Assembly: GCA_024655925.1 (NCBI GenBank)
Contig: JANLFS010000004.1
Coordinates: forward strand, 5,201-63,102
DNA: 57,902 bases
Direction of reading: 5' to 3'
Source of the DNA: Bacillota bacterium
Lineage (GTDB): Bacteria > Bacillota > DTU025 > JANLFS01
Below the pieces are notes generated by a model that was given only the letters and a program-made list of their open reading frames with translations, made no database searches and was not told the DNA's origin. This document shows, piece after piece, positions 10,110-43,546 of the stretch (positions are counted from its first letter, which is position 1; every line of letters starts with the position of its first letter). The position numbers and the translations under genes are program-made.

Positions 10110-10124
10110 CAGCGCAGGAATTGC

Positions 10125-10139: not shown

Positions 10140-10155
10140 AGGTGGTGGCGGATCC

Positions 10156-10590: not shown

Positions 10591-10617
10591 GAGCAACTCT
10601 TCAGAGGTGAAGCGGAA

Positions 10618-11376: not shown

Positions 11377-11393
11377 GCAGGAGGTAATCCTGG

Positions 11394-12113: not shown

Positions 12114-13015
12114 AGGCCGACCGCGACACCATCACGACTTCAACTGGCGTGCCGCGCAAACCCGGGGCTCGGGGCGATGGAGACCCTATCGTGCGAGTAA
12201 ACTGCATCCGGCATGTCTATCCCGACCACACCCAAGTGGACCTGTGCGGGCTGGACTTCACCGTCTCGCGCGGGGAGCGTGTCGCAGTCCTGGGCGCCAA
12301 CGGGAGCGGGAAGTCCACTCTGATCTATCACCTACTGGGCCTCCTCGCGCCTGTGGAAGGGCAGGTCGCGGTCTTTGGTGAGAACCCCGCCCAGGCCTTC
12401 CGGCGCATACGCCACAGAGTTGGAGTCGTGCTCCAGAACGTGGATGACCAGATAATCGGCCCAACAGTCTGGGACGACGTGACATTCACCATACGCAACC
12501 TGAACTGGCCCCGGGCCGACATCGAGGCTGCGGGCAACCGTATCCTGGGGAGGCTTGGCATAGCCCACCTGGCCAAGAAGATCCCTCACTACCTGAGCGG
12601 CGGGGAAAAGCGGAAGGTAGCCCTTGCCGGGGCGCTCGCAAGCCGCCCTGAGCTCCTCATAATGGATGAGCCATTCACTGGACTGGACCCCAAGGCCCGG
12701 GAAGAACTGGTGGACCTTCTGAACCAGGTACACGTGGAGGACGGGTTGAGCTACATCGTCTCCACTCACGAGGTCGACTTCGTCCCTGCCATCGCAGATT
12801 ACGTCTATGTGCTCGGGAGTCACGGGATCGTCATGTCGGGGACGCCCAGGCAGGTCTTCGCCCAGGCGCCCGCGCTACGTGCCTCTCACATAGGCCTGCC
12901 GGCCATCACTGAGCTGTTCGAGCGGCTTCAGAGGGCAGGATGGGATGTCGGCACGCCGCTCACCGCCGCCGAAGCCGAGGCCGAGCTCAGTCCGTATCGA
13001 TCTTCGGGATCTTGA
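12110..13015 (+). CDS. cbiO: ECF transporter ATPase, CbiO/EcfA family
   Basis: Walker [10 protein letters not shown], signature [13 protein letters not shown] and Walker B LLIMDEP. The start is taken at ATG 12110. The 5' part of track ORF 11363..13015 is a shadow frame over cbiQ. Confidence 0.9.
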
Positions 13016-14642: not shown

Positions 14643-14700
14643 CTGCCTTCCTCCTTGAGCCTGGTGTGGCATGTCATACCTGCGGGCCAGCTGTGTCAAG

Positions 14701-16272: not shown

Positions 16273-16796
16273 TCTCCGTGGCGGCACAGGTAGCCCGCCT
16301 CGCCGAGGGCCCCAACGATGCGCTGCAGTGTTTCCTCGTCTCGCGCCGTGATAGTGTGCAAATGGACACCTTCCGTCAGGACGGAGAGAGGCCTAGCTCC
16401 AGCGCCGGACATCTTCGCCATGAACTTCCTGACGTCCTCCCGGGATGATAGCGCAAGGGTCCCCTTGAGCTCGCCATAGAGAGGGTGGTCCACCAGGACA
16501 TCCTCAACTGTGCCGCCGAGATCGACTATGAGCTCGAGTTCTCCTTGCGTCCCTTCCGGGCCGTGACAACACGCGACCAAGGTCCTGCAACGCTGGCTGG
16601 CCCGGGTGGCGCGGGGTATCAAATACCCCTGGGGAGTCGCAACTATGTCGGCGCCTGATGCGCGGAGGAGGGCTATGTCGGAGACTATGATCTGCCGGCT
16701 CACTGAGAACATGCTGGCCAGGTCCTGTCCAGTCACGGGCCCGTTCCGTCTGGTGAGTACCTCCAGTATCCCCCGGCGTCTTTCGTCACCAGTCAT
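16269..16796 (-). CDS. niaR: NiaR (YrxA)-type transcriptional regulator: HTH + 3H domain
   Basis: MTGDERRRGILEVLTRRNGPVTGQDLASMFSVSRQIIVSDIALLRASG (HTH_11 type), followed by the 3H region ...CHGPEG...LVDHPLYGEL...GVHLHTI. The start is at ATG 16796. The longer track ORF (to 16997) overlaps the upstream gene. Confidence 0.8.
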   Translation of the reverse strand: MTGDERRRGILEVLTRRNGPVTGQDLASMFSVSRQIIVSDIALLRASGADIVATPQGYLIPRATRASQRCRTLVACCHGPEGTQGELELIVDLGGTVEDVLVDHPLYGELKGTLALSSREDVRKFMAKMSGAGARPLSVLTEGVHLHTITARDEETLQRIVGALGEAGYLCRHGE

Positions 16797-27870: not shown

Positions 27871-30606
27871 CTATCCTGCCATCGAGAGATGGAGTCCGGG
27901 TATGCTACTCTCACCGCCAACCGGAATGAGCCTGGCTGTCAGCACGGTCATGTCGTCTGCTGGGTTCACCCTCGCCTTCTTCGAACCCTGAGCCCAATCC
28001 AGGATCGCCTTCGCGGCGTCGGAAGCCTTGTTCCCCTTCGACTGTTGAACCGCCCGGATCAACCTCTGGTCTCGGTCGGCCATGTCTCTCCTGGCCTCGA
28101 TCACCCCATCGGTGACCATTATCAGGACATCGCCCGCACGAAGGGCCCGCTTGAACCTGTTGACCGGCATGGGGGCCTTCACTCCCGCTGGAAGCGACGG
28201 GGCGCCCACCTGGACCACTTCTTTGCCGTGCTTTATGAGGCTGGGGGGTGCGCCGGCCTTGACCATCTCGACTTCCCCGGTGTACAAGTCGACTACTGCG
28301 AGATCGAGGGTGGTGAAACTCTCATCCCGCGACCGGAGGAGCATCAACATGTTCACCGCCTGGACCGCGAAATCCACCTCGAGACCGGTCTCGAGCAGCC
28401 TGGCCAGAGTCGCGGCGGCAGCCCCGCTCTCCTGGGACGCTCGAGTGCCCACCCCCATCCCGTCAGCCAGGATGATGGCCATTCTGCCGTCTCCGAGATT
28501 CCTCAGAAGGTGGGTGTCGCCCGATACCTCCAGGTTGTGGCGGGCGATCTTGACCACCTCTGTTTCCAGATCGTACTTGCGAGTGGGAAGAAGCCTGATC
28601 GAGCACTCGGTGAGTTCGCCAGCACCCCCAACGGCGTGGGGACAGCAAGCGCTCCAGACTGAGAGTGGGCGCCCCACCACCCGCGCCACGATGGGCGCGA
28701 TGGACTTGACGCACTCACCATCTCGTTGGCAGGGCCTCTTCCACATCCGCACTTCGAGTGCCTCTCCGCCAGAACGGGACACGCTCACCCTGCTGACACT
28801 GATGCCGAGCCTGCCAAGCCTCTCCTTTATCTCCCTCTCAATGTCCTCCTCGAACCGAACTCCCACTCCGATGTCTTCAGACATACTGTTGAGAGCCCGC
28901 GAGACTCCGTCCATCTGAAGCGAAAAGACCTCCGCCGCCGCGCTGAGGCTGAACCCGGCGCCGCTTCCTGCTTCTTGCCCCACATGAACCCTCGATCCGG
29001 CGCGCAGAGTGCATCCGGCCACCTCGTTTGCGGCCTCCACCAGCGGGCCTGTCCTCGCACACCGACCTGTCAAGGCCGCGGGAAGATCCTCGGGCTTCAC
29101 TTCCCCATTCAACTCGAACAGGGCAAGAACGTCCACCAGGTCGCGGCAGGTCTTGAAGAACAGATCGCCCCAGCACGTGGAGTAACGAGGGCAACCACTG
29201 CACGCCCTCTCGCGCACCGAAGACACGATCTGTGCCACCCTCATGGGCATCGAGCCTGTGGGCCCAGAGCCCTCGACCTCCAGCAGCCAACGACTCCGCT
29301 CTGAATCGGGTTCCCCAGTATTCGCAGCTGCCCCGCTGTGAACCCGTCCTTGCTGTCCGCGGGATATCTCGTGCGCGGCCTCTCCGCTGCCAGCACGGCT
29401 TACTCCGACCGCGAATGCCTCAGCCAGCTCTCCAAAGGCGTTCCCCAGTTCAGCCAGGCGCTGGGAGATGATGTAGTGAACACGCTGGGTGTACGCTCTC
29501 TCTCGCCGTGCAGCCTCGACTGTGTCAGGAACGAACCGCGCTGCACTCGAAAACAACCGTCTGGGTATAGCCAAGAACAGGATCATGGCCCCGGCCGCCT
29601 CAATGAGTGAGCACGAGAAGGCTGCCTCAGAGGAGAATTGAAACCCTACCACCACCGCCGACAGGACAAGAATGAAGCCGGCCACTGCCCGCCCCTGCCC
29701 ACGGACGGAGCCAACCATGAGGCCTGCAAGAGCCAGAGCTCCCATTGACAACACGGACCCAGTCCGTGACATGGAGAGAACCAGCCCAAGCGCAGCGCCG
29801 CCCACCGCGCCGGCTCCGGGTCCGGCGACGAACCCGACGAAGCCTGACGTGAATAGGGCCGCGATTCTGCCCGGGGATACACCGAAGACCGACAATGAGT
29901 CCAGACCGGCACAGATTGCAGAGAGCCCTATCAGAAAGCACGTCGATTCCATCGCCGTCTGAGCCCGCGACATCCCCCGTCTCGCGTATGCTAGCGTGGC
30001 CGGGATGACGAAGGCAGAGGCAATCCCGGCCACCGCCGATTCTACCAGGGCAAACGTAGCGGTATCGATCCCCGAACCGAGTAAGAGTTCAGACAGTACA
30101 GTCCCTGCGAACGAGCAGATGAGCACGGACGCCCCAACCGCCCACGACGCCTGTGGCGCTCGTTCCTCCACCAATTGATTCCTGAGCGGTTTTCGCATGG
30201 GGAAGAAAAGCACTGAGGAGACTCCGAGAGCCAGTACACCAGATCGTCCCCGGAACACCCATGATGCGGCGAGCGCGCCGGACAGGGTGGAGAGCCCGGA
30301 CGGGATTCTCCACGCCACCAGCGAAGAGGCTACTGCAACAATCCCGAAAGGCACATATGCACCGAATAAGACTGCCGACGCAGCAGCGAAGCCGACCCCG
30401 GCGAACAGCGCGGATCTGGCGGAAAGGAGATGCCTGAGAGACAACATGACATTCAGCGCCGAGCGGACCGCGCCCCGGTAGCCTGTCCCCTGCCGGCGCA
30501 CGGGTCGAGGTCCCTTGGGTTTGAGCCTCACGCCGTTAGTCCAGCGGACTTGCCCACTCTTCCTGCTGTAGGCGGGTATGCCGTCCCTCGACGCCACGCG
30601 TTCCAC
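27871..30606 (-). CDS. spoIIE: Stage II sporulation protein E (polytopic membrane PP2C phosphatase)
   Basis: About 10 N-terminal TM segments, a central regulatory region and a C-terminal PP2C domain (GDTHLLRNL...ILADGMGVG...DDMTVL). It aligns by eye with B. subtilis SpoIIE. The exact start is uncertain: GTG 30606 has poor Shine-Dalgarno spacing. Confidence 0.85.
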   Translation of the reverse strand: MERVASRDGIPAYSRKSGQVRWTNGVRLKPKGPRPVRRQGTGYRGAVRSALNVMLSLRHLLSARSALFAGVGFAAASAVLFGAYVPFGIVAVASSLVAWRIPSGLSTLSGALAASWVFRGRSGVLALGVSSVLFFPMRKPLRNQLVEERAPQASWAVGASVLICSFAGTVLSELLLGSGIDTATFALVESAVAGIASAFVIPATLAYARRGMSRAQTAMESTCFLIGLSAICAGLDSLSVFGVSPGRIAALFTSGFVGFVAGPGAGAVGGAALGLVLSMSRTGSVLSMGALALAGLMVGSVRGQGRAVAGFILVLSAVVVGFQFSSEAAFSCSLIEAAGAMILFLAIPRRLFSSAARFVPDTVEAARRERAYTQRVHYIISQRLAELGNAFGELAEAFAVGVSRAGSGEAAHEISRGQQGRVHSGAAANTGEPDSERSRWLLEVEGSGPTGSMPMRVAQIVSSVRERACSGCPRYSTCWGDLFFKTCRDLVDVLALFELNGEVKPEDLPAALTGRCARTGPLVEAANEVAGCTLRAGSRVHVGQEAGSGAGFSLSAAAEVFSLQMDGVSRALNSMSEDIGVGVRFEEDIEREIKERLGRLGISVSRVSVSRSGGEALEVRMWKRPCQRDGECVKSIAPIVARVVGRPLSVWSACCPHAVGGAGELTECSIRLLPTRKYDLETEVVKIARHNLEVSGDTHLLRNLGDGRMAIILADGMGVGTRASQESGAAAATLARLLETGLEVDFAVQAVNMLMLLRSRDESFTTLDLAVVDLYTGEVEMVKAGAPPSLIKHGKEVVQVGAPSLPAGVKAPMPVNRFKRALRAGDVLIMVTDGVIEARRDMADRDQRLIRAVQQSKGNKASDAAKAILDWAQGSKKARVNPADDMTVLTARLIPVGGESSIPGLHLSMAG

Positions 30607-31023: not shown

Positions 31024-32400
31024 TCAGATGTGAACGGCAAGCCCCATCGCAGCCTCGGCCGATTCCATCACGGTCTCGGCGAGCGTTGGGTGGGCGTGTA
31101 TGGTGTGTGCGACATCCTCGATGGTGAGCCGGTTTTGGACCGCCAGGGCCAGCTCGGCTATGAGGTCGCTCGCATGAGGTCCCACTATGTGTCCACCGAT
31201 GACACGCCGTCCGGACTGTTCCGCAAGTATCTTCACGAACCCTTCCACTTCCCCCATGGCCACTGCCTTCCCGGAGGCGGCGAACGGGAACTTGCCCACG
31301 ACGTAACTGATGCCGGATGCCCTGGCACCGACCTCTGAGAACCCGACCGTCCCCACCTCGGGACTTGTGAAGATGCAGGAGGGGACGGAGTGGTACTCCA
31401 TCTCGGTGTCTCGGCCGGCGATATTAGCCGCAACCACAAGCCCTTGCGCGGATGCAACGTGGGCGAGAGGGTTCTTGTTGGTCACGTCACCGATGGCCCA
31501 GATGCCCGGCTCGGACGTGCGCAGGCGCGAGTCCACCACGATCTCTCCGGCCGGGCCGAGTTCCAGCCCAGCCTCGACGGCCCCGGAACCCCCGATGTAT
31601 GGCTTTCGTCCCATGGACAGGATGACCTTCTCGGCCCTGAAGACCTCTCCCGTGTCGGTCTTGGCCTGGACCAGCCCATCGGAGACGTCGACTTCTGTGA
31701 TCTTGGTGGCGGTGTGAATCTTGATTCCGCGTTTCTGGAAAGATGCTGCGATCACACTAGCGACATCCGAATCTACCATCGGCAAGATGGTTGGCATTAT
31801 GTCAACCATGGTCACCTCGGACCCGAACGTCCGGAAGATGCTTGCGAACTCGCACCCGATGACTCCTGCACCTACCACCAGAATGCTCGACGGGATCGAG
31901 GTGAGCGATAGGACTTCTTCGGAAGTCAAGACGTTCCGACCATCGTGCCCGAGCATCTTGGGGGCGATGGGCACAGACCCAGTAGCTACCACGATGTTGC
32001 GGGTCTCTACCCGGCTCAGGCTGCCGTCCGCCGCCTCTATCAGGACTGCCCCAGGGGTGTCGATCCTTCCTCTCCCCGAGATCACGTCGACCTTCCACTT
32101 CTTGAGGAGAAACCCCACACCGTTCCTGAGTCTCGCGACCACCCGGTCCTTTCTGGACATGACTCTCGGGAAGTCGATGTCCACAGCCGGGATGGATATG
32201 CCGAATTCGGCCCCGCGCCGGGCGTCGGCCACCATGTCCGCAGTATGAGCAAGCGCCTTGGTGGGGATACATCCCCAGTTCAGACAGGTTCCGCCGAGAT
32301 CTGCCTTCTCCACCAGGGCACACCTGAGCCCATACTGGGCTGCACGGATAGCACAGACGTACCCACCCGGTCCACCGCCGAGGATGACCAGATCGTACAT
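31024..32400 (-). CDS. lpdA: Dihydrolipoyl dehydrogenase (E3 / L-protein)
   Basis: FAD fold MYDLVILGGGPGGY and redox disulfide GGTCLNWGCIPTK, with a C-terminal HAHPTLAE. The start is moved to ATG 32400. Confidence 0.9.
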   Translation of the reverse strand: MYDLVILGGGPGGYVCAIRAAQYGLRCALVEKADLGGTCLNWGCIPTKALAHTADMVADARRGAEFGISIPAVDIDFPRVMSRKDRVVARLRNGVGFLLKKWKVDVISGRGRIDTPGAVLIEAADGSLSRVETRNIVVATGSVPIAPKMLGHDGRNVLTSEEVLSLTSIPSSILVVGAGVIGCEFASIFRTFGSEVTMVDIMPTILPMVDSDVASVIAASFQKRGIKIHTATKITEVDVSDGLVQAKTDTGEVFRAEKVILSMGRKPYIGGSGAVEAGLELGPAGEIVVDSRLRTSEPGIWAIGDVTNKNPLAHVASAQGLVVAANIAGRDTEMEYHSVPSCIFTSPEVGTVGFSEVGARASGISYVVGKFPFAASGKAVAMGEVEGFVKILAEQSGRRVIGGHIVGPHASDLIAELALAVQNRLTIEDVAHTIHAHPTLAETVMESAEAAMGLAVHI

Positions 32401-32450
32401 GCACAATATCCCCCTTGCCTGTCCCGTTCTACATCCTTTGGGTATTCTAG

Positions 32451-33317
32451 CTACCGCCCTGCGGTTCCTGCCTGCGCAGACCCCCGGGTCACGCTCCGGG
32501 CGGAACCGCACACCTCCTGCTCGATCTCCGCTGATCGCTTCGCCGCAGCGTGGATCGCAGCCTGGAAAGTGGCAGCTACGTCAAATGAGCGGAGAACGCG
32601 GAGGCCTTCGAGGGTAGTGCCCCGGGGCGACGCCACTTGGTCCACGAGGTGTCCGGGTTCCTGGCCGGTTTCCGCCATCATCCTGCCTGCACCAAGTAGC
32701 GTCTGTATTGCGAGCTGTCTGGATACATCCGGGGGCAACCCCGCGGCCGACCCCGCTGCCTGCATCGCATCGACAATGTAATAAATGAAGGCTGGGCCGC
32801 TCCCGGACAACCCAGTGACTGCGTCGAAGTATGCCTCGTCCACTTCCCAGACCTTGCCCACCGATGAGAACACGGAACACGCCACATCTCTGGCTGTGTC
32901 ATCTGTCCCGGCGCCGAGGCAAATCGCAGTCGCTGACTCACGCACAACGCATGAGGTGTTGGTCATGGCCCTGACTATTCGAACATCCGGCCCAAGCTTG
33001 CCCGCGATGTATGTCGTGGGGATCGCGGCGGCGAGGCTTATGATCACGTGGCGTCGTTTTACGTGGGGCGCACACTGCTCGAGCGCGATCCCCATGTCCT
33101 GGGGCTTGACAGCCATGATGACAACGTCCGCGAAACGGAAGACGGTCGCTTTGGACATCGTGGAGCGGACCCCCCACCTATCTACGACCTCCCGGAGTTT
33201 CTCAGACCTTCGCCGGCCGTTCACCATGACATCGCCGGGCTCGAGGAATCCCCCGCTCACAAGCCCTCGAACCAGAGCCGAAGTAATGCGCCCAGCCCCC
33301 ACGAACCCGATCTTCAT
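32451..33317 (-). CDS. proC: Pyrroline-5-carboxylate reductase
   Basis: MKIGFVGAGRITSAL Rossmann start and the C-terminal PRGTTLEGL motif. The start is ATG 33317 or 33332. The longer track ORF would run through the T-box terminator. Confidence 0.85.
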   Translation of the reverse strand: MKIGFVGAGRITSALVRGLVSGGFLEPGDVMVNGRRRSEKLREVVDRWGVRSTMSKATVFRFADVVIMAVKPQDMGIALEQCAPHVKRRHVIISLAAAIPTTYIAGKLGPDVRIVRAMTNTSCVVRESATAICLGAGTDDTARDVACSVFSSVGKVWEVDEAYFDAVTGLSGSGPAFIYYIVDAMQAAGSAAGLPPDVSRQLAIQTLLGAGRMMAETGQEPGHLVDQVASPRGTTLEGLRVLRSFDVAATFQAAIHAAAKRSAEIEQEVCGSARSVTRGSAQAGTAGR

Positions 33318-33364
33318 ATTCAGTCCCTTCATGCTGTGCCCAACTCCGTCCTTTCCGCCCCGGA

Positions 33365-33655
33365 AAGCAAAAACGCCCCTCGCCCGTAAGGACGAAAGGC
33401 GTTGCTTCCGTGGTACCACCTTGCTCGGCACGCCATGCCGGCGCGCCCTCTGCCCGGTACGCCCTGCCCCCAACCGGGGGCACGGGTTATACCGCCCCGC
33501 ATGCTAACGGGCGGGCGCCGGCCAGGCTCATCGCCTGCTGCTCCGGGGTGGGTTCTCCCGGGTGCCCGGTGCCTTCCTCACAGCCATTCGGGAGGCTCTC
33601 TGAACCGCGCCCGGCCGGGGTACTCTTCCCCATCATTGCATTTAGCTCCTGTATT
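33365..33655 (-). promoter_or_regulatory. T-box riboswitch leader with a proline specifier (CCC)
   Basis: On the minus strand: K-turn/AG-box elements (GATGGGGAAGAGTA, CAGAGAG); specifier-loop context GAA-CCC-A (CCC = 33552..33550); T-box sequence AAGGTGGTACCACGG (33408..33424 on the plus strand); then a terminator hairpin with a T run. The downstream gene is proC. Confidence 0.8.
33372..33403 (-). terminator. Intrinsic terminator of the T-box leader
   Basis: The minus strand reads AACGCCTTTCGTCC-ttac-GGGCGAGGGGCGTT followed by TTTTGC. Its 5' arm can alternatively pair in the T-box antiterminator. Confidence 0.75.
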
Positions 33656-33662
33656 GACCATT

Positions 33663-33691
33663 ATTATACGGCTCGCGTTCCCCGACGTCAA
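33663..33691 (-). promoter_or_regulatory. Near-consensus sigma-A promoter driving the T-box/proC transcript
   Basis: The minus strand reads TTGACG (33691..33686), a 17-nt spacer, then TATAAT (33668..33663). Confidence 0.75.
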
Positions 33692-33884
33692 CAGGCAGTC
33701 GCCCGGGCAGCCTCGGTGACTGGCAATGCCTCAGATGGGTTGTCACCTCCCATACCACCAAAAAACGCCGGTCAACTCAGCTACTCGCGTGACTGGGGGC
33801 AGGACTTTCGGCGCGTATGCTGAATACAATTGGGTGCGGGGCATCGCGGACCAGGCTCCGCTCAATCTTCAGGGGGGTGGACAG

Positions 33885-34994
33885 ATGTCCGAACTGCGTA
33901 AGACGCCTCTCTATGACGCCCACGCGGCACTGGGAGCAAGGCTGATCGATTTCGGAGGATGGGCCTTGCCGGTGCAGTACACCGGGATCCTAGATGAACA
34001 CAAAGCAGTCAGAGAGCGCGCCGGCCTGTTCGATGTGTCCCATATGGGTGAGATCGACGTCGAAGGTCCGGACGCGCTCCGACTTGTCGATCACCTGGTG
34101 ACAAATGACTGCTCCGGAATGTCCCTACACCAGGTCATCTACACCCCGATGTGTTATCCTGACGGTGGGGTAGTGGATGACCTCCTCGTCTACAAGCTGG
34201 CGGAAGACCACTACCTACTCGTCGTAAACGCGTCCAACACGGAGAAAGACTTCGCGTGGGTTCAGGAGAACCTGGGTTCTCTCAACGTACACGTGAGGAA
34301 CATATCTGCGGAGACCGCGCAGCTCGCGCTGCAAGGCCCGAGAGCCGAAGAGATACTCGGGGCCCTTACCCGGGTCGACCTGCGCTCGATTAAGTTCTTC
34401 TTCGCTGTGCCCGACTGCCCGATTGCCGATAGAAAGTGCCTCGTGTCGCGGACAGGCTACACCGGTGAAGACGGTTTCGAAATCTACTGTGCTCCTGCGG
34501 ACGCCGAGCATATCTGGAACGCGCTGTTGGATGCCGGGAAACCTCTAGGCCTTTCTCCCGCTGGCCTGGGTGCGCGCGATACGCTTCGATTCGAAGCATG
34601 TCTTCCCCTCTACGGGCACGAGCTTTCGCCCGACATCTCGCCTCTCGAGGCGAACCTCGGGTTCTTCGTCAAGCTCGGCAAGGACAGTTTCATCGGCCGC
34701 GATGCACTCTTGACCCAGAAGGAGAGGGGGCTCGCCCGCAAGCAGGTGGGGTTGGAGATACTAGAGCGAGGGATTCCGAGACAGGGGTATCCGGTGCTCG
34801 CGGGAGACACCGTCGTGGGCCACGTCACATCTGGTGCCCACTCGCCCACGTTCAACCGCGGGCTGGCGCTCGCTCTGGTGCCAGTAGAACACGCTCGAGC
34901 AGGAACTGAGCTCGCCATCGACATAAGGGGCCGTGCGCACAAGGCCGTGGTAGTGAAAACCCCGTTCTATAAGAAGGCGTACAGGAAGGAGTAA
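33885..34994 (+). CDS. gcvT: Aminomethyltransferase (glycine cleavage T-protein)
   Basis: [32 protein letters not shown] and FDVSHMGE. The start is at ATG 33885, after GGGGGGTGGA. Confidence 0.95.
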
Positions 34995-35001
34995 TGACAG
35001 A

Positions 35002-35385
35002 ATGGCCAGCGTCGTCAAGTTTACCCGGGATCACGAGTGGGTGCGCGTAGAAGGTAACACTGCCGCCGTCGGCATCACCGAACACGCAGTGCATGAACTC
35101 GGAGATGTCATCTTCGTAGAGTTGCCTGAAGTTGGCCTTTCGGCTAATCAGGGCGAAAAGCTCGCGGTGGTCGAATCAGTCAAGGCTGTCGCTGACGTCT
35201 TCGCCCCGGTAGGGGGAGTTGTAACTGGTGTCAACGATGCTCTGACAGGCAAGCCCGATCTGCTCAACGAGGATCCGATGGGCGAGGCCTGGATTGCAAA
35301 GCTCGAAATAGCCAATATGGGGGAACTGGACGGCCTCATGGACGCTGATGAATACGAGGCGTTCCTGAAGGAGGAAGGAGACTGA
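35002..35385 (+). CDS. gcvH: Glycine cleavage H-protein (lipoyl carrier)
   Basis: 127 aa with the lipoyl-lysine motif VVESVKAVADV. Confidence 0.95.
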   Translation: MASVVKFTRDHEWVRVEGNTAAVGITEHAVHELGDVIFVELPEVGLSANQGEKLAVVESVKAVADVFAPVGGVVTGVNDALTGKPDLLNEDPMGEAWIAKLEIANMGELDGLMDADEYEAFLKEEGD

Positions 35386-36743
35386 TGGGATCTCCCCACA
35401 GGTACATCCCCAATACCGAGAAAGACATCGAGGGGATGCTCCAGGACATCGGCGTGTCCGGTGTGGACGATCTGTTCTCAGACATCCCACCCGAGTTCAG
35501 GCTGGACAGGCCTCTCGATCTGCCTTCCGCTCTGTCTGAGCAGGAGCTGATGGCTGAAATTTCCAGGCTTGCTTCCAGGAACTCAGCCTCAGACGCCAAT
35601 GCATCCTATCTCGGAGCTGGAATCTACGACCATTATGTGCCGAGCGTCGTGGATCACATCCTGAGACGTGGCGAGTTCTACACCGCATATACTCCCTACC
35701 AGGCTGAAGTGAGTCAAGGGACGCTCCAGGTCATCTTCGAGTACCAGACTATGGTCTGTGAACTCACGGGTATGGATGTCGCCAATGCATCTCTCTACGA
35801 CGCGGGGACCGCTGTGGCGGAGGCTGCCATTATGGCGTGCTCGGCCACGGGGCGGAAGAAGGTGCTGGTGACACGCGCCACCAACCCAAGGTACCGAGAG
35901 GTCCTCGTCACTTACGCAAAGCCCAGGGGTATAGAGATCGTATTGGTGGACTACTGCCCAGCGATGGGTGTGACCCTGGCCGAGACCGTGGCCCAGTATG
36001 CTGGGCCAGGCGTGGCGTGTCTAGTTGCACAGAGCCCCAACTACTTCGGGTGTGTAGAAGACATGGAGTCCTTGGGCTCGGTCGTCCACTCCTCCGGTGG
36101 GTTGTTCGTCGCAGTGGTGAACCCCATCTCACTGGGCATTCTTGCCCCTCCCGGATCCTACGGGGCCGACATCGCCCTCGGTGAAGGGCAGGCGCTCGGG
36201 AACCCCATGAACTTCGGCGGGCCACTTCTCGGCTTCTTTGCCACCACTAACGCCTTGATAAGGCGGATGCCAGGACGCCTCGTGGGGCAAACTCAGGACT
36301 CATCCGGCAGGCGCGGGTTCGTACTGACGCTTCAGGCGCGGGAGCAGCACATAAGACGCGAAAGCGCGACCTCCAACATCTGCTCCAACGAGGCTCTGTG
36401 TGCCCTTGCCGCCGCAGTCTACTTGAGCCTCATGGGGCCGGGAGGGCTCAGGCGTGTCGCGGAACTCTGCACCTGGAAAGCCCATTACGTCAGGGACCGG
36501 ATCGCGGCAATCCCCAACTACGAGATCCCGTTTAACGGTCCGTTCTTCAATGAGTTCGTGGTGAGGGCGCCCGGATGCCCTGTCGACCGCAACCAGGCTC
36601 TCCTACGAAAGAGCATCATCGGCGGCAAGCCTCTGCGTGGGGACTATCCTGAGCTTTCTGGGTGCACGCTCTGGGCGGTCACTGAGAAGCGCACCCGCGA
36701 GCAACTTGACACCCTCGTCCGGGAACTGGAGGTGTTGGTCTGA
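35385..36743 (+). CDS. gcvPA: Glycine dehydrogenase (decarboxylating) subunit 1
   Basis: [14 protein letters not shown]-terminus; [17 protein letters not shown]-type overlaps occur on both sides. Confidence 0.95.
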
Positions 36744-38209
36744 TGAAAGGCCCCCAACCCCTCATTTTCGAACTGAGTGCCCCCGGGCGTGCCGCGGTGG
36801 ATCTCCCCCAACCGGACGTGCCCACCTCTGATCTATCGACGCTGTTTCCTGCAAAATCACTTAGAGTTGACCCGCCGGGCCTGCCTGAGGTGAGCGAGGT
36901 CGACGTGGTCCGGCACTTCGTGAACCTGTCGCAACTCAACCATGCAGTCGACACCGGGTTCTACCCTCTCGGGTCCTGTACGATGAAGTACAACCCCAAG
37001 GTCAACGAGGACGCCGCAAGGCTGCCAGGCTTCACCGGTCTACACCCCGCGCAGCCCGAGTCTTCGGTGCAGGGTGCTCTGGAGTTGCTCTACTCTCTCG
37101 GCCGCTATCTGTCGGAGATCACAGGAATGGACAAGTTCACCCTCCAACCCGTGGCCGGGGCGCACGGCGAGATCACCGGGCTCTTCATCATCCGGGCCTA
37201 TCACCTGTCCCGCGGAGAGCACCGCACGAAGATCCTGGTGCCGGACTCCGCTCACGGCACCAACCCCGCAAGCGCTGCTGGCGCCGGAATGCAGGTTGTT
37301 CAGGTGAAGTCCGATTCTTCGGGCAATGTCGACATCGACGACCTCAGGGCGAAGATTTCTGGCGAGGTCGCCGCCCTCATGCTCACCAACCCCAACACTT
37401 TGGGGCTCTTCGATGAGCACCTCAAGGAGATCAATGAGATCGTGCATGGGGCAGGAGCACTCCTCTACTATGACGGGGCCAACGCCAACGCTATCCTCGG
37501 TAAGTCGAGGCCTGGGGACATGGGGTTCGACGTGATACACCTGAACCTTCACAAGACGTTCTCCACGCCTCATGGAGGGGGTGGGCCGGGTTCCGGGCCG
37601 GTCGGGGTCAAGGAGTTCCTCGAGCCATTCCTTCCCACGCCCCTCGTTGAGTTCGATGAGGCATCCGGGATGTACCGGTGGAATTACGAGCGGCCCCAGT
37701 CCATAGGGCGCGTCCACTCATGGAACGGCAACTTCGCGGTCATGGTTCGCGCTTGGGCCTACATCCGATCCATGGGCCCCGACGGGCTTAGAACCGCGTC
37801 CGAACATGCCGTGGTCAACGCCAACTATGTAATGCGCAAGCTGATGCCGTTGTTCGATCTGCCTTACGACCGCCCGTGCAAGCACGAGTGCGTCCTCTCA
37901 GGCACAAAGCAGAAGAAAGCCCACGGGGTCCGCACCCTCGACATGGCCAAGCGCCTGCTGGATTTCGGGTACCATGCTCCCACGGTCTACTTCCCCCTCA
38001 TCGTGGACGAAGCAATGATGATCGAGCCTACGGAGACGGAAAGCCGGGAGACACTCGACGCGTTCATCGAGGTCATGACCAGAATCGCGCATGAGGCGGA
38101 GGAATGCCCGGATGTCCTGCACGACGCGCCTCATACAACGCCGGTGGGGCGGTTGGACGAAACACAAGCGGCAAGAAGACCTGTGTTGAGGTACAGCCGA
38201 GAGAGCTAA
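36743..38209 (+). CDS. gcvPB: Glycine dehydrogenase (decarboxylating) subunit 2
   Basis: PLP-lysine region [18 protein letters not shown]. Confidence 0.95.
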
Positions 38210-38238
38210 GCAGGAACGGGGTTATCTCCGTTGCTGCC

Positions 38239-38265
38239 CGGGCGGCGCTCCAATTGCGCCGCCCG
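38239..38265 (+). other. GC-rich intercistronic stem-loop between gcvPB and the radical-SAM gene
   Basis: cGGGCGGCGC-tccaatt-GCGCCGCCCg forms a perfect 10-bp stem with no following U run. Confidence 0.6.
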
Positions 38266-38331
38266 CCTCTCTATCATGACGGAGACTGGCATGAGATACC
38301 AATTCAGCCCAAGGAGCCAGGAGGACGCGAA

Positions 38332-40248
38332 TTGAGCACAGCTGAGGATCGAGCCTGGTCCATACGGACCGCAAATTTCGCACCTGAGATAGTTTTTGCA
38401 AGACCATCCCAGACGCTGACAGTCTCCGTCACAGGCAGTGAGTGCGCCCTCGGCTGCGCCCACTGTGGCGGCAGGTACCTGGTGGGCATGCGCCCGGCGG
38501 CAGAGGCCCTGGCTGCTCTCACGTCTGGGGCGCGGACTCCCCGATCCCTTCTCGTAAGCGGCGGATGCGACCCCGGGGGCCGCGTTCCTCTCAGCACTTG
38601 GCTCCGGCAGTTGCGGGAGGCTTCCCCCGACGGGGTCAGGCTCAACTGCCACGCAGGGCTCGTCTCAGCCGATGAGGCCGCGGAGATTGCGAGATGGGCA
38701 GATATTGTCTCTTTCGACTTCGTTTCGGATCCTCGTGTGATCCAGGAGGTATACGGGCTTTCACGGTCGCCCGAGGACTACATCGACACCTACATGGCCC
38801 TGTCCAACCGCGTCCGCACCGTCCCACACATCTGCATTGGACTCGCGGAAGCACTGGAGACAGGTGGATCCCTGCATAGTGGTAACCCTGATTCTGAGAT
38901 AGGAGCTGTGGAGGCTCTGCGAGGGCTTGTGGACTCCGGCCGGGCCCCGCTCCCGCCCGCGCTTGTCTTCATCATTTTCACCCCGACCCGGGGCACCAGG
39001 TTCGAGAGCAAGCCGCCCCCTTCCCTCGCCCTAGTTGGTGCGGTTCTCGCCAGGGCGCGCGAAGTCTTCCCTGACATCCCTATCAACCTGGGGTGCATGC
39101 GTCCGACGGGTGACTACCGCACCCAGGTCGATACCCTCGCCATCAGGTGCGGAGTCAACCTGATCGTACAGCCCAGCGCCGGGGCTTTCGATGAGGCGCG
39201 GCTGCAGGGACTACGTGTTATCGAGACCTATGAATGCTGTGTGTTTGAGCCGACAAGGTCCCCCGGGGTATTGAAGATCAGAGCATCCTCCGGGACTGCG
39301 GCGGCCCTTGGGCTTCTTCCCCTCAAGTCACTCGCCGCCCCAACAACGGCCTACGTAATGGTCGGCGACAAGTGCGCGAGGGACTGCGCCTTCTGCGCAC
39401 AGGCCAGGAGCAGCACGGATGGAGAGGGCAAGCTGTCTCGAGTGACGTGGCCCGAGGTCCCGCGAGACGCTTTCGCCAACGCGCTTGCCCAGGCTGCGCG
39501 CTCGGGGCGGGTCCACAGGGCATGTGCTCAGGTAGTAGGGGGCTTGGATGCCCTGGCGGCCGCGGTTGAGGCAGTCCGATTCCTCCGACAAACGGGCGGA
39601 GCAGGATTTCCGGTGAGCGTGTCGTTCAGTGCCACCTCTGGCGAGAAGGATGTTGAGGCGCTTCTGGAAGCGGGGGCCGACCGGGTGGCTCTCCCGTTGG
39701 ACGCGTGTGAGGCCTCCATCTACCAGAAAGTCAAGGGGCACGATATGTCCAGGGCACTTGAATTGATCCTTCGGTGCGCACGGGCGTTTCCGGGAAGGAT
39801 TGGGACTCATCTCATCGCGGGGCTAGGCGAAAGCGAAGAGGATCTGATCCGCCTTGCCAGCAGGATGTTCGACGCAGGCGTCGGCGTCGGCCTGTTTGCC
39901 TTCACGCCTCTTCCCGGCACCAGGCTTGCCGGGGCGCCGCCTCCAGACATCGGGTCTTACCGTCGTGTCCAGCTATGCCTCTACCTCATGAGACAAGGGT
40001 TGGCCCTGGTTGGGGACTTTGATTTCCGTGGAGGGACGGTTCGGAGGATTGCGATCCCTGCTGAGACCGTAATGAAGGCGGCCCTATCAGGTGAGCCGTT
40101 CAGGACATCAGGGTGTCCTGACTGCAACCGCCCTTTCTACAATGAACGTCCTGGTGGCACCATGTACAACTACCCTGAACCCCTTGAAGCGCGTGACGCC
40201 GAGACCGCTGCAGAAACCGCGCTCATCGGAGTAGAATTGGGAGACTGA
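38332..40248 (+). CDS. Two-module radical-SAM protein (two CX3CX2C triads); candidate fused LipS1/LipS2-type lipoyl synthase
   Basis: TTG 38332 lies 7 nt after AGGAGG. The first triad is CALGCAHC (38443..38466) and the second is CARDCAFC (39373..39396), about 310 residues apart. The C-terminus carries GCPDCNRPFYNE. The gene lies between gcvPB and a lipoate/octanoate ligase. Confidence 0.85.
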   Translation: MSTAEDRAWSIRTANFAPEIVFARPSQTLTVSVTGSECALGCAHCGGRYLVGMRPAAEALAALTSGARTPRSLLVSGGCDPGGRVPLSTWLRQLREASPDGVRLNCHAGLVSADEAAEIARWADIVSFDFVSDPRVIQEVYGLSRSPEDYIDTYMALSNRVRTVPHICIGLAEALETGGSLHSGNPDSEIGAVEALRGLVDSGRAPLPPALVFIIFTPTRGTRFESKPPPSLALVGAVLARAREVFPDIPINLGCMRPTGDYRTQVDTLAIRCGVNLIVQPSAGAFDEARLQGLRVIETYECCVFEPTRSPGVLKIRASSGTAAALGLLPLKSLAAPTTAYVMVGDKCARDCAFCAQARSSTDGEGKLSRVTWPEVPRDAFANALAQAARSGRVHRACAQVVGGLDALAAAVEAVRFLRQTGGAGFPVSVSFSATSGEKDVEALLEAGADRVALPLDACEASIYQKVKGHDMSRALELILRCARAFPGRIGTHLIAGLGESEEDLIRLASRMFDAGVGVGLFAFTPLPGTRLAGAPPPDIGSYRRVQLCLYLMRQGLALVGDFDFRGGTVRRIAIPAETVMKAALSGEPFRTSGCPDCNRPFYNERPGGTMYNYPEPLEARDAETAAETALIGVELGD

Positions 40249-40253
40249 GCAGA

Positions 40254-41069
40254 ATGTCGAACGAGAACACGACGGTCTGGAGAATAGTATGGAGCCCGGC
40301 GTTGCCCGGGCCGGAGAACATGGCAGTCGACGAGGCAATCCTGGAATCGGTCAAGCAGGGGCTTGCGCCGCCCACTCTCCGGTTCTACACTTGGAGCCCA
40401 GCGTGCGTCTCGATCGGGTACTTCCAGTGCGCCGCGGCCTCCACAGACATGGCGGAGATCAAAAGACGCGGGCTGGGGTTCGTCCGCCGTCCCACCGGCG
40501 GCAGGGCGATACTCCACGACGATGAACTCACCTATAGCGTGGTTGCGCCCGTCAGCCTGCTTCCGGGCCCAAGCAGCGTGCTCGACACCTACCTCACCAT
40601 CAGCCGAGGGCTCCTCTCCGGCCTGCTCGCACTTGGGGCACAGGTGGAGCTTGCGCCCCGTGGAGGAGACCGTCCAGGGCATGCCAAGTCCGCGGCATGC
40701 TTCGACACCCCGTCCTCGTACGAATTGGTCTCTGGAGGTCGAAAGGTCGTGGGGTCCGCCCAGACCCGGCGGGGTGGGGTCCTCCTTCAGCACGGTTCAG
40801 TCCCTATTTCCATGGATTTCCAGCTCCTGACGGCGGTGCTCGGGCTCGAGCCCAGAATGAAAGAGACTCTCCGCTCAGGAGTCGTCACTGTCAGTGAACT
40901 GCTCGGCCGGGGAATCGAGCCGCGTGAACTCGGGGAAGCGCTCGCGGGCGGGCTCATCCGTGAGGTGCTCGGAGCCTGTGAACGAGGGGAACTCACAGGG
41001 GGCGAGAAGGCCCTAGCGGCGGAGTTGGTGGCTAAGTACAACAGCGATGAGTGGAACTTCGTGCGGTGA
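40254..41069 (+). CDS. Lipoate/octanoate--protein ligase family protein (BPL_LplA_LipB catalytic domain only)
   Basis: NMAVDEAILESV, RRPTGGRAILHDDELTYS and the catalytic-Lys region GRKVVGSAQTRRGGVLLQHGS. 271 aa with no LplA C-terminal accessory domain. Confidence 0.85.
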   Translation: MSNENTTVWRIVWSPALPGPENMAVDEAILESVKQGLAPPTLRFYTWSPACVSIGYFQCAAASTDMAEIKRRGLGFVRRPTGGRAILHDDELTYSVVAPVSLLPGPSSVLDTYLTISRGLLSGLLALGAQVELAPRGGDRPGHAKSAACFDTPSSYELVSGGRKVVGSAQTRRGGVLLQHGSVPISMDFQLLTAVLGLEPRMKETLRSGVVTVSELLGRGIEPRELGEALAGGLIREVLGACERGELTGGEKALAAELVAKYNSDEWNFVR

Positions 41070-41805
41070 CGAAGCTGGAGAGTTCCTCGAAGAGCCTTTC
41101 CTGGTCTTCACCGAACATGCACATGTGCCTGGAATTGGGTAGGAGTACCAACCGCTTGTCCACAGAGGCCAGGTGGTCGGCAATGTACCTAGCGTCTTCG
41201 GGAGGCGCGGTCCGGTCCTGAGCCCCCGCCACTACGAGTGCAGGGGTGGTGACCTTGGCAAGGTTTCGCCTCACGATGGACATCAAACGGATCAGGCTCT
41301 CCGCACATACGAGAGGTTTCTGAGTATACGCCACCTTGTTTACGCCGCTCGACACCTCCGGAGGCACCGGGGCGGGCGGGTCATACTTCTGGAAGAACTT
41401 GAGTATCGGGAGCAACACGACTCTCGGGTCTCGGATGCGCATGGGCGAGCTGATGACCGCGATCCCGTCCACTTCATGCCTCTGTGCGAGGTAGAGGGCA
41501 ATCAACCCTCCCATGGAGAACCCCACTACGAAGACGAGGTCGTGCTCGCTCTTCATGCGAACCAGAGCGGACTCGGCGCACCCGACCCAATCGGTGAAAC
41601 GCGTCCGGCTCATATCCTCCACCGACGTTCCATGGCCAGGCAACCGGGGCGCGTACGCGAAAATCCCTCTCGATGCGAGATGCTCTCCGATGGGCCTGAC
41701 CTCCGAGGGCGACCCTGCGAATCCATGGATGATGAGCGCCGCAACCCTGCCGTCCCCAGCCGGGATCGTGAAAGTTTCAGCGCCTCTCATCACCTCCGGC
41801 TGCAT
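41032..41805 (-). CDS. Alpha/beta-hydrolase (carboxylesterase / monoacylglycerol-lipase-like)
   Basis: HGFAGSP oxyanion region, nucleophile elbow GFSMGG and a C-terminal His region NSRHM. 257 aa. Confidence 0.8.
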   Translation of the reverse strand: MQPEVMRGAETFTIPAGDGRVAALIIHGFAGSPSEVRPIGEHLASRGIFAYAPRLPGHGTSVEDMSRTRFTDWVGCAESALVRMKSEHDLVFVVGFSMGGLIALYLAQRHEVDGIAVISSPMRIRDPRVVLLPILKFFQKYDPPAPVPPEVSSGVNKVAYTQKPLVCAESLIRLMSIVRRNLAKVTTPALVVAGAQDRTAPPEDARYIADHLASVDKRLVLLPNSRHMCMFGEDQERLFEELSSFVTARSSTHRCCT

Positions 41806-42691: not shown

Positions 42692-43546
42692 TCAACTCCT
42701 CCTGGTGCAGGCTGCCTCGAGAGTGTTCTTCATGAGCATGGCTATGGTCATGGGGCCAACACCGCCAGGAACGGGGGTTATGTATCCCGCGACCTCCGAT
42801 GCCTGGGCGAAGTCGACATCGCCCACCAGCCTCTTGTCCTCGAGCCTGTTCACGCCCACATCTATGACAACCGCACCCGGCTTGACCCAGTCGCCCTTTA
42901 TCATCTCCGGCCTGCCCACCGCGGCAACTAGGATATCTCCCTCGCGGCACACCGCGGGCAGGTCCTGCGTGCGGGAGTGACAGATGGTGACCGTGGCGTG
43001 CTCCGCGAGAAGCATGAGGCTCACCGGCTTCCCCACGATATTGCTACGCCCAACGACCACGGCGCGTTTGCCCCGGACCTCGATCCCTGTGCGGTGAATC
43101 AACTCCATTATCCCCGCGGGAGTGCACGGGCGGAGACCGGGTTTCCCAATCACAAGATTCCCTACGGAGACGGGGTGGAACCCATCAACGTCCTTCCCTG
43201 GGGTTATGGTCTCTATAACTTGGTCCTCATCGAGGTGGTCCGGTAGGGGCAGCTGCACAAGTATGCCGTCGATAGCCGGGTCCTCGTTGAGCGCGCGGAC
43301 CAAACCCATCAGTTCCTCCTGTGTCGCCTTCTCGGGCAGGGCATGCTCTTCCGAATAGATGCCAACCTCCGCGCATGCCTTCTTCTTGCTGTTGACATAC
43401 ACCCTCGACGCCGGGTTGTTGCCGACAATGACCACGGCGAGCCCGGGGACTCTGCCGTGTGCGGCCTGGTAAGCCTCTACCTCTTCATGCACGGACTGCC
43501 GTATGGAGGCAGCAACGGCCTTGCCGTCAATGATCGTCGCGGACAT
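42692..43546 (-). CDS. folD: Bifunctional methylene-THF dehydrogenase / methenyl-THF cyclohydrolase
   Basis: [17 protein letters not shown] and [11 protein letters not shown] motifs. Confidence 0.95.

Follow-up and report, generated by a model that had tools for sequence, protein, structure and literature searches.

The DNA analysed here (the window) is a stretch of 57,902 nucleotides on contig JANLFS010000004.1, from an uncultured spore-forming Firmicute, and it carries a gene for a 638-aa protein with two radical-SAM modules at the end of a glycine-cleavage operon. The features of the locus are summarized in Table 1. The gene lies in a 714-codon frame (38104..40248, plus strand), whose in-frame start options are ATG 38104 (within gcvPB), TTG 38254 (without an RBS), TTG 38332, GTG 38482, and ATG 38488. 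The start given in the original prediction, TTG 38332 with AGGAGG 7 nt upstream, was upheld, and it agrees with the aligned N-termini of homologs. The JGI call for this gene is only 545 aa long and misses the first radical-SAM motif. The codon-position GC of the gene (0.66/0.54/0.68) revealed a weak but consistent coding bias, alike in both halves. A crude GC3-based gene call passed over this frame and chose an antisense ORF at 39328..39810; as regards the predicted coding status of the fused ORF, the homology evidence outweighs that call.

Table 1. Features of the glycine-cleavage operon and of the fused gene, in window coordinates
Feature	Position	Strand	Evidence
lpdA, dihydrolipoyl dehydrogenase (L-protein), in divergent orientation to the gcv operon	31024..32511	-	538 bits, cut-off 408.8
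gcvT	33726..34994	+	profile match begins at residue 53-57
gcvH, presumed lipoylation substrate (lipoyl-lysine in VVESVKAV)	35002..35385	+	
gcvPA	35385..36743	+	635 bits, cut-off 364
gcvPB	36743..38209	+	768 bits, cut-off 441
Shine-Dalgarno AGGAGG	38319..38324	+	read directly, 7 nt ahead of TTG
Fused lipS1-lipS2 gene (predicted), 638 aa + stop	38332..40248	+	ORF, profile matches, homolog alignment
LipS1 module, residues 22-303	38395..39240	+	NF053742, 244.8 bits, cut-off 230, model positions 1-268 of 268
Radical-SAM triad 1, C38/C42/C45 (CALGCAHC)	38443..38466	+	Cys in 102/105 LipS1 sequences, gaps in the other 3
H166, counterpart of Thermococcus LipS1 H159 (proposed fourth auxiliary-cluster ligand)	38827..38829	+	105/105
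C255 (GCMRP), counterpart of Thermococcus LipS1 C230, auxiliary [4Fe-4S] ligand	39094..39096	+	105/105
C302-C303 (ECC), counterparts of Thermococcus LipS1 C276/C277, auxiliary ligands	39235..39240	+	Cys in 105/105 and 104/105
Linker EPTRSPGVL	39247..39273	+	stands where unfused relatives have a stop codon, an RBS-bearing spacer, and a start codon
LipS2 module, residues 316-615	39277..40176	+	NF053743, 327.1 bits, cut-off 270, model positions 1-292 of 292
Radical-SAM triad 2, C348/C352/C355 (CARDCAFC)	39373..39396	+	Cys in 233-234/236 LipS2 sequences
C398 (RACAQ), counterpart of Thermococcus LipS2 C85, auxiliary-cluster ligand	39523..39525	+	236/236
H493, counterpart of Thermococcus LipS2 H178 (likely fourth ligand)	39808..39810	+	His in 235/236
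C595-x-x-C598 (GCPDCNRP), counterparts of Thermococcus LipS2 C276/C279, auxiliary ligands	40114..40125	+	Cys in 235/236 each
Predicted LipM-type octanoyltransferase, 271 aa, C149 and K164	40254..41069	+	Pfam LplA-B_cat alone; LipM similarity

The neighborhood was found to be as first described: a 122-nt gap separates the fused gene from the 3′ end of gcvPB and a 5-nt gap from the next gene, the operon is shared with a gcvH bearing the lipoyl-lysine motif, and lpdA lies close by. The true start of gcvT is probably located about 53 codons downstream of 33726, and the JGI call for this gene is 369 aa. The LipA-like gene reported absent from the window was indeed missing, with no CX4CX5C motif in any of the six frames; bacteria with LipS1/S2 commonly have LipA as well (Tanabe et al.), and this genome may carry one outside the window. 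An Rfam scan of the whole window returned nothing; in particular, there was no glycine riboswitch upstream of gcvT and no match in the 122-nt spacer. A promoter and terminator scan of 33300..41300 gave counts not above those of shuffled sequence, a result that is neutral on a separate promoter for the fused gene. As for the direct tie to the glycine cleavage system that had been proposed, the operon context was confirmed, but the arrangement is common rather than special. The order lipS1, lipS2, lipM is repeated in dozens of genomes, often after gcvPB, and its occurrence behind gcvTHPAPB is common in Bacillota and Chloroflexota and extends to some archaea; this placement was previously noted by Neti et al. 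(2022).

The gene downstream of the fused one had been described as a lipoate/octanoate ligase consisting of the catalytic domain only. The single catalytic domain (PF03099/PF21948, without the LplB accessory domain) was confirmed, but the product is predicted to be a LipM-type octanoyltransferase instead. An alignment covering the whole protein gave 48% identity to P0314, a Brevibacillus sequence carrying the UniRef name Octanoyltransferase LipM, and paired C149 and K164 with a Cys and a Lys of P0314. Among 52 cluster-linked homologs, the cysteine is kept in 47 and the lysine in 50. In Bacillus subtilis LipM, we take the active-site cysteine to be C150, about 15 residues ahead of the catalytic lysine K165; the role of C150 was reportedly described by Christensen and Cronan in 2010.

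Alternatively, the 271-aa protein could be an ATP-dependent lipoate/octanoate ligase, that is, an LplA large subunit with LplB encoded elsewhere, which would scavenge free octanoate or lipoate rather than use octanoyl-ACP. By sequence, its top match in the PDB is Thermoplasma LplA subunit 1, most database names read "lipoate--protein ligase family protein," and Tanabe et al. group LipM with LplAB in a single mixed subgroup, within which the two types have repeatedly interconverted. LplA_large (NF053750) is also the top NCBIfam match, but it scored 100.5 bits against a cut-off of 480, LplAB (NF053751) scored 74.9 against 550, and none of the NCBIfam models rose above its cut-off. Furthermore, no LplB or Lip_prot_lig_C gene was present among the genes called within ±10 kb, either in this lineage or in its relatives, and Thermoplasma LplA lacks a cysteine at the position 15 residues ahead of the catalytic lysine where most of the homologs have one. 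Together with the full-length identity to a Bacillales protein named LipM, these data made the ligase assignment rather unlikely, and we retain the LipM-type octanoyltransferase.

The two halves of the 638-aa protein, which had been proposed to correspond to LipS1 and LipS2, were scored by profile. NF053742 was the best model for the N-terminal half and NF053743 for the C-terminal half, each matching end to end and above its curated cut-off (Table 1). By homology, the LipS1 module is predicted to insert sulfur at C6 of 8-mercaptooctanoyl-lysine, and the LipS2 module at C8 of octanoyl-lysine. Both CX3CX2C triads were found where they had been reported and are the only ones in real genes of the window, and GCPDCNRPFYNE, noted earlier near the end of the second module, was located at residues 594-605. 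An extra CX3CX2C match falls in a 209-codon ORF at 48644 on the minus strand, which the crude gene call did not select. Residue conservation was counted over 105 LipS1 and 236 LipS2 sequences. In Thermococcus, the auxiliary-cluster ligands are C230, C276, and C277 for LipS1, with H159 as the proposed fourth, and C85, C276, and C279 for LipS2, with H178 as the likely fourth (PMC9585515). Judged by motif pattern, spacing, and invariance, every experimentally mapped Thermococcus LipS1/LipS2 auxiliary ligand has an apparent counterpart in the fused protein.

Neither half scored best to a nonlipoyl radical-SAM family. The LipA models (TIGR00510/PRK05481) reached 23 to 24 bits against cut-offs of 203 to 310, the RSSY motif was absent from the fused ORF, and the HmdB and MoaA models remained far under cut-off. 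The AlphaFold2 model (mean pLDDT, 93.6) contained the two TIM-barrel modules that had been anticipated, both BioB/HydE-like; since its pTM was only 0.69, the model gives no confident placement of the modules relative to each other. The full-length protein had no match in a PDB sequence search, and a solved LipS1 or LipS2 structure was found neither in the PDB by sequence nor among the best 50 fold matches. The nearest solved folds were biotin synthases, HydE, and PylB. This likeness, along with the long-standing annotation of LipS proteins as biotin synthases (PMC9585515), raises the possibility of a fused pair of BioB-like sulfur-insertion enzymes acting on another substrate (a biotin-like or other thiolated cofactor) instead of octanoyl-GcvH. 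However, the BioB model (TIGR00433) matched the C-terminal half only, with 41.7 bits against a cut-off of 225, while both LipS equivalog models passed theirs; the LipS-specific auxiliary ligand pattern (the CC pair and CxxCNRP) is present, and the gene sits between gcvPB and lipM, near gcvH and lpdA. The fold likeness to BioB is to be expected within one megacluster, and we regard a nonlipoyl substrate as very improbable.

That a sequencing error had artificially joined two genes was a caveat of the original prediction, and the junction indicated that the fusion is genuine. A second contig, Ga0417229_000311 from JGI metagenome 3300038743, has the same open junction and, over 21.6 kb, differs from the window at only two positions, both of them intergenic mismatches. 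In the closest relative (L084; GCA_034926675.1), the same operon carries separate lipS1 and lipS2 genes, and the junction is about 29 nt longer, with a stop, a GAGGAG RBS, and an ATG (23-nt spacer). All three elements are wholly gone in the window, and a difference of this size and content rules out a single-base error as the explanation. The independent assemblies GCA_002385365.1, GCA_001577815.1, and ERZ925068 contain fused orthologs whose flanking genes are conserved, one fused sequence (P0002) is listed on 68 contigs, and related uncultured Bacillota have syntenic fused genes. Other fused forms have short linkers that lack conservation, and in the AlphaFold2 model the pLDDT falls to about 80 at the linker. 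An assembly or sequencing artefact in an organism that really has separate lipS1 and lipS2 is exceedingly improbable on this evidence, to which the lack of a credible internal RBS or start ahead of the LipS2 module and the equal codon-position GC of the two halves may be added, even though the closest relative keeps the genes separate in an identical operon, an obvious frameshift in at least one related locus (L003) indicates that errors do arise in such MAGs, and the exact junction is present in two records only, which could derive from related samples of one population.

The LipS1-LipS2 fusion is rare, as it was found in about 5 of the 150 top-scoring clusters at 50% identity and in 1 to 2 of 80 GTDB species loci, but it recurs in at least five lineages. 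Other LipS1-LipS2 fused forms also score above both LipS cut-offs, and such forms are already in public databases, named only "radical SAM protein." No description of fused LipS1-LipS2 was found in the literature that could be searched, and the supplements of Tanabe 2023 gave no match for the fused forms or the relevant taxa. The fused gene belongs to a known pathway, of which it is a genuine but uncommon variant; it does not represent a new kind of enzyme, and only the fusion is unusual.

Taken together, 38332..40248 very probably encodes a lipoyl synthase of the LipS1/LipS2 type in a natural single-chain form, in which LipS1 is the N-terminal and LipS2 the C-terminal module, at the end of the operon gcvT-gcvH-gcvPA-gcvPB-(lipS1-lipS2)-lipM. 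In the mechanism that we propose from homology, the LipM-type transferase would first move octanoate, most likely from octanoyl-ACP, via a Cys149 thioester to the lipoyl-lysine of apo-GcvH. The radical-SAM [4Fe-4S] cluster of LipS2 (C348/C352/C355) would then generate a 5′-deoxyadenosyl radical that abstracts H from C8, and the auxiliary cluster (C398, C595, C598, and H493) would give sulfur to this carbon. Finally, LipS1 (C38/C42/C45, with auxiliary ligands C255, C302, C303, and H166) would repeat the reaction at C6 of the 8-mercaptooctanoyl group, yielding lipoyl-GcvH.

The fusion probably originated by a small in-frame deletion of the lipS1 stop codon, the RBS spacer, and the lipS2 start. 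It would fix the module stoichiometry at 1:1 and may permit the swinging-arm intermediate to be handed over without release, although a selective benefit by channelling is speculative. Since the nearest relative is unfused, the fusion is clearly not needed for function. Natural fusions are classic evidence for the interaction of two proteins. The biology is otherwise unsurprising: a small deletion or a single point mutation would suffice to fuse neighboring lipS1 and lipS2 genes, which often overlap or share a frame. The recurrent LipS1-LipS2, LipS2-LipS1, and LipS2-LipM fusions tentatively suggest that LipM, LipS2, and LipS1 might normally form a physical assembly line on one GcvH, a doubtful but possible arrangement. 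If so, the LipS2 site of the fused protein would deliver the 8-mercaptooctanoyl arm undissociated to its LipS1 site, and the protein would be a self-contained lipoyl synthase, possibly better protected from oxygen or thiols, and a ready construct for the first LipS1/LipS2 structure. The LipS1/LipS2 system has been established as an alternative lipoyl synthase only recently, and a one-chain form whose stoichiometry is fixed is convenient for crystallography or cryo-EM with GcvH, for questions of channelling, and for heterologous complementation by one gene.

Compared with other fusions at this cluster, the LipS2-LipM/Lpl forms (P0024, P0075, and P0082; loci L027, L039, and L045) likewise join neighbors, but the partners differ, whereas the reversed LipS2-LipS1 form (P0129) joins the same cluster's genes in the opposite order; P0129 is divergent and falls under both LipS cut-offs. 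The unfused gcvTHPAPB-lipS1-lipS2-lipM operons of Bacillota and Chloroflexota, such as those of Sporomusa ovata, Thermincola, Carboxydothermus islandicus, and Symbiobacterium, as well as that of L084, the closest, share the gene order and the flanking lpdA, TrxR-like, folD, and murD genes, with LipS2 halves that are 63 to 64% identical. Their lipS1 and lipS2 genes are separate, some overlapping by a few nucleotides in different frames and some parted by one in-frame stop. Programmed read-through in the same-frame unfused loci was considered and rejected, since the stops are a mixture of TGA, TAA, and TAG with no single type.

The closest known system is the LipS1 plus LipS2 pair of Thermococcus kodakarensis (TK2109/TK2248) and the lipS1/lipS2 genes of Thioalkalivibrio and Hyphomicrobium. 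The fused protein resembles it in the full-length family matches, in the triads and auxiliary [4Fe-4S] ligand patterns, and in the association with a PF03099 transferase/ligase and an H-protein. It differs in being a single polypeptide in the order LipS1-linker-LipS2, in having a predicted LipM-type partner without lipT where the known systems use LplAB or sLpl(AB), and in its presumed target, which is the GcvH of the glycine-cleavage operon rather than LbpA as in the sulfur oxidizers. With LipA, the fused protein would share two radical-SAM-dependent sulfur insertions into octanoyl-lysine, with the sulfur supplied at the expense of an auxiliary Fe-S cluster. In contrast to LipA, in which one module of about 300 aa with the CX4CX5C and RSSY motifs performs both insertions and attacks C6 first, the fused protein has two modules and neither LipA motif, and by homology it would attack C8 first.

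Using the NCBIfam equivalog models with their curated cut-offs for family assignment, we evaluated each half of the 638-aa product of 38332..40248, described in the original prediction as a candidate single-chain LipS1/LipS2-type lipoyl synthase encoded between gcvPB and a lipoate/octanoate ligase gene, against rival families. As summarized in the table, the LipS1 and LipS2 models were each matched full-length and above cut-off, and by these models the sequence is unambiguously that of a LipS1-LipS2 protein, which supports its reading as a putative fused synthase. BioB was rejected on its score, and LipA on its score and on the absence of any CX4CX5C motif from the window, in which the original prediction had likewise seen no LipA-like gene; HmdB, MoaA and the other NCBIfam models scored far under cut-off, and Pfam returned only the generic Radical_SAM domain. 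In every feature testable from sequence, the protein agreed with the LipS1 and LipS2 families and disagreed with LipA and BioB.

Features of the window and model matches of the 638-aa protein (nucleotide positions unless residues are stated)
Feature	Position	Strand	Remark
hutU, hutH	12987..16287	-	histidine utilisation
SpoIIE	27871..30606	-	sporulation gene
lpdA	31024..32511	-	above cut-off; divergent from gcv genes
gcvT	ORF 33726..34994	+	above cut-off; ~53 codons longer than family model and JGI call (369 aa)
ORF	38104..40248	+	contains fused lipS1-lipS2 gene
In-frame start candidate ATG	38104	+	within gcvPB (gcvPB end, 38209)
In-frame start candidate TTG	38254	+	no ribosome-binding site
In-frame start candidate TTG	38332	+	AGGAGG at 38319..38324, 7-nt spacer
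In-frame start candidates GTG, ATG	38482, 38488	+	both 3' of first Cys triad
CALGCAHC (radical-SAM triad 1)	38443..38466	+	638-aa protein
CARDCAFC (radical-SAM triad 2)	39373..39396	+	638-aa protein
Alpha/beta hydrolase	41032..41805	-	beside TrxR-like gene
TrxR-like flavoprotein, 292 aa	41806..42684	-	202 bits vs TrxB cut-off 343; convergent to lipM
folD	42692..43546	-	beside TrxR-like gene
LipS1 (NF053742)	residues 22-303		244.8 bits, cut-off 230; model 1-268 of 268
LipS2 (NF053743)	residues 316-615		327.1 bits, cut-off 270; model 1-292 of 292
BioB model	C-terminal half		41.7 bits, cut-off 225; partial coverage
LipA model	638-aa protein		23 bits, cut-off 310; partial coverage

Translation from TTG 38332 yields the 638 aa, and this start agreed with the N-termini of full-length homologs in the alignment. 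Both predicted Cys triads were present, and the motif placed at the end of the second module, GCPDCNRPFYNE, was found at residues 594-605. A six-frame scan gave a third CX3CX2C match in the window, in a 209-codon ORF at 48644(-) that the crude gene call passed over, so that the two triads are the sole CX3CX2C motifs in real genes there. The JGI call for the fused gene (10001-11638 of its locus) starts at TTG 38611, giving 545 aa and leaving a 400-nt 'intergenic' gap behind gcvPB; because this start drops the first triad, the two-module nature is hidden in that annotation.

The ligands of Thermococcus LipS1 are C27/C31/C34 (radical-SAM) and C230, C276, C277 and probably H159 (auxiliary), and those of Thermococcus LipS2 are C39/C43/C46 (radical-SAM) and C85, C276, C279 and probably H178 (auxiliary) (Neti et al. 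2022, PMC9585515). Matching pattern and spacing were found in the LipS1 half (C38/C42/C45, H166, C255 and the C302-C303 pair) and in the LipS2 half (C348/C352/C355, C398, H493 and C595-x-x-C598), and these positions were essentially invariant in alignments of 105 LipS1 and 236 LipS2 sequences. A confident AlphaFold2 model from a 55-sequence alignment (mean pLDDT 93.6, pTM 0.69) predicted two alpha/beta barrel modules, with lower confidence at an insertion (~residues 171-190) and at the linker (~301-320). No chain was matched in a PDB sequence search with the protein; the top PDB fold matches of the model were biotin synthases (8vdw, 1r30), HydE and PylB, with LipA weaker, as is expected for the BioB-like megacluster.

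The spacings of 122 nt to gcvPB and 5 nt to the next gene were correct as predicted, lpdA lies nearby, and GcvH carries the lipoyl-lysine motif (VVESVKAV); gcvH, gcvPA and gcvPB were all above cut-off. Given the excess codons of the 33726 ORF, the true gcvT start is probably near 33885. Upstream of gcvT (33400..33900), neither a glycine riboswitch nor any other Rfam family was detected at the gathering threshold. The arrangement gcvTHPAPB-lipS1-lipS2-lipM(-lpdA) is widespread: of 82 examined loci, 45 contained GcvH, among them those of Sporomusa, Thermincola, Carboxydothermus, Symbiobacterium, Chloroflexota and Hadarchaeum (order different). Neti et al. 2022 (PMC9585515) saw LipS1/LipS2 of bacteria grouped with the H protein and a ligase of PF03099 in genome-neighbourhood networks, and lipS1/S2 of Sporomusa are linked with canonical lipoate genes, LipM-LipS1/S2 combinations having been noted too (Tanabe et al. 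2023). Thus, the proposed direct wiring to glycine cleavage held as operon context and not as an unusual trait, being ordinary for this family.

SpoIIE and a GC content of ~61% indicated a sporulating, high-GC Bacillota lineage, and hutU/hutH with spoIIE characterise the organism as a member of the Bacillota that forms endospores and degrades amino acids. The TrxR-like gene, kept at the same position in loci L081, L084, L007, L009 and L011, could encode a LipT-analogous electron donor or just belong to a folD operon. In the close relatives L007, L009 (gcvPB ends ~9791/9879, lipS2 from 10001) and L011, with LipS2 55-57% identical, the genes run gcvTHPAPB-lipS2-lipM, and lipS1 is absent both from this site and from the surrounding 10 kb; the unlinked partner may be the stand-alone LipS1 P0212/P0057 (58% identical; from Firmicutes bacterium ADurb.BinA052).

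The product of 40254..41069, originally labelled a lipoate/octanoate ligase, consists of a PF21948/PF03099 catalytic domain alone. It shared 47-49% identity, across 97% of its length, with 276-aa Brevibacillus proteins, one of them named Octanoyltransferase LipM in UniRef, and in pairwise alignment its segment SAACFDTPSSYELVSGGRKVVGSAQ aligned with a 25-residue segment of Brevibacillus LipM. C149, 15 residues ahead of the catalytic lysine K164, was shared by 47 of 52 lipS1-lipS2-linked homologs, with no Cys at this position in Thermoplasma LplA, the best PDB match. C150 of B. subtilis LipM is reportedly the acyl-thioester nucleophile. A scavenging ligase is an unlikely identity, since the LplA_large and LplAB scores fell far under cut-off and no LplB-type gene was found among genes called within 10 kb in the window lineage and its relatives; together with the LipM similarity and the conserved C149, these data make a LipM-type octanoyltransferase the probable one.

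By homology, LipM would octanoylate apo-GcvH at its lipoyl-lysine, with octanoyl-ACP as the most likely donor, after which the C-terminal LipS2 module would insert sulfur at C8 and the N-terminal LipS1 module at C6, an order that follows Neti et al. 2022 (PMC9585515); in each module the radical-SAM cluster would abstract hydrogen and the auxiliary [4Fe-4S] cluster would be sacrificed as sulfur donor. Fusion would keep the two modules at equal levels and may let the intermediate be handed over on the swinging arm, and is not essential, as the nearest relative is unfused.

This relative, the closest found, is MAG GCA_034926675.1 (L084; LipS2 63-64% and GcvPB 80% identical to the window's); it has exactly the window's operon and flanks (lpdA, gcvT-H-PA-PB, lipS1, lipS2, lipM, TrxR-like, folD, murD), with lipS1 (317 aa) and lipS2 (345 aa) as separate genes. 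Its junction reads ...ECCVFAGMQR-stop, a 23-nt spacer with GAGGAG, and ATG-DFSTLRVSSG..., and that of the window ...ECCVF-EPTRSPGVL-KIRASSG..., ~29 nt shorter and lacking stop, RBS and ATG, which rules out a single-base error as the cause. JGI contig Ga0417229_000311 (metagenome 3300038743) equals the window over 21.6 kb bar two mismatches and shares its open junction. Other uncultured Bacillota possess fused orthologs of 605-695 aa (39-56% identity, 86-97% coverage). The homolog P0002 is listed on 68 contigs, which come from several independent assemblies, those of biogas fermenters among them, and its flanking lipM, hydrolase, TrxR-like, folD and murD are retained; further fused forms pass both NCBIfam cut-offs. 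Against this second contig, the size of the junction difference and these orthologs, an assembly or sequencing artefact is highly improbable. Both mismatches to the JGI contig (38285 and 38298, each an A in the window and a T in the contig) lie within the intergenic spacer upstream of the fused gene. At L003 (10001-11792; P0211; GTDB representative MFD03899.bin.1.111), the LipS1 part is interrupted by a frameshift, probably an error of long-read assembly; P0007 is the intact fused 628-aa version, known from further assemblies in that species-level cluster.

Searching 1.84 billion 50%-identity representatives in full with HMMER yielded 991 matches at E <= 1e-10. Of the 150 that scored best, only five were fusions of LipS1 to LipS2 (the window's cluster, P0008, P0054, P0056 and P0059); one was a reversed LipS2-LipS1 protein (P0129), and several joined LipS2 to LipM/Lpl. 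In a set of 80 GTDB species-representative loci, lipS1 was directly followed by lipS2 in 56 and formed a single ORF with it only in L001 (Ca. Fermentithermobacillaceae), L003 being the frameshifted fused copy. In neighbour-joining trees of each half, fused forms fell into at least five separate groups, each beside unfused sequences, and their linkers were not homologous to one another, which favours recurrent, independent fusion. Overlaps of a few nucleotides are found in many unfused pairs. At nine bacterial and archaeal loci (L002, L004, L005, L006, L008, L010, L012, L014 and L015) both genes share a frame, separated by one stop codon in eight and by two in L004; most such loci are therefore one point mutation from fusion, which is mechanistically easy. 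Programmed read-through is not indicated there, the stops being a mix of TGA, TAA and TAG.

LipS2-LipM/Lpl single chains of ~570-680 aa occur in several Chloroflexota and Bacillota lineages (L027, 9968-11818; L039, 10764-12608; L045, 7403-9208, Symbiobacterium thermophilum MAG; proteins P0024, P0028-P0035, P0075 and P0082). P0129 (675 aa) is divergent (~32% identity), scores under both NCBIfam cut-offs (207.7 vs 270; 181.9 vs 230) and has archaeal-type sequences as its nearest relatives by distance.

Public records name the fused proteins 'radical SAM protein', 'biotin synthase' or 'uncharacterized radical SAM superfamily protein'. The original statement that no characterised fused form was known agreed with the literature searched: a LipS1-LipS2 fusion is not mentioned in Tanabe 2023 (main text and 13 supplementary files), in Neti 2022 or in full-text literature searches. 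The fusion is rare but recurrent, and unsurprising to a specialist because lipS1 and lipS2 so often abut; it hints, in the Rosetta-stone sense, that LipS1 and LipS2 (and LipM) work together, and the single-chain enzyme is a convenient target for structural work. The initial observation was fully borne out, and its interpretation as a LipS1/LipS2 fusion is supported at the level of sequence. From all characterised systems, the predicted enzyme differs by its single-chain architecture.
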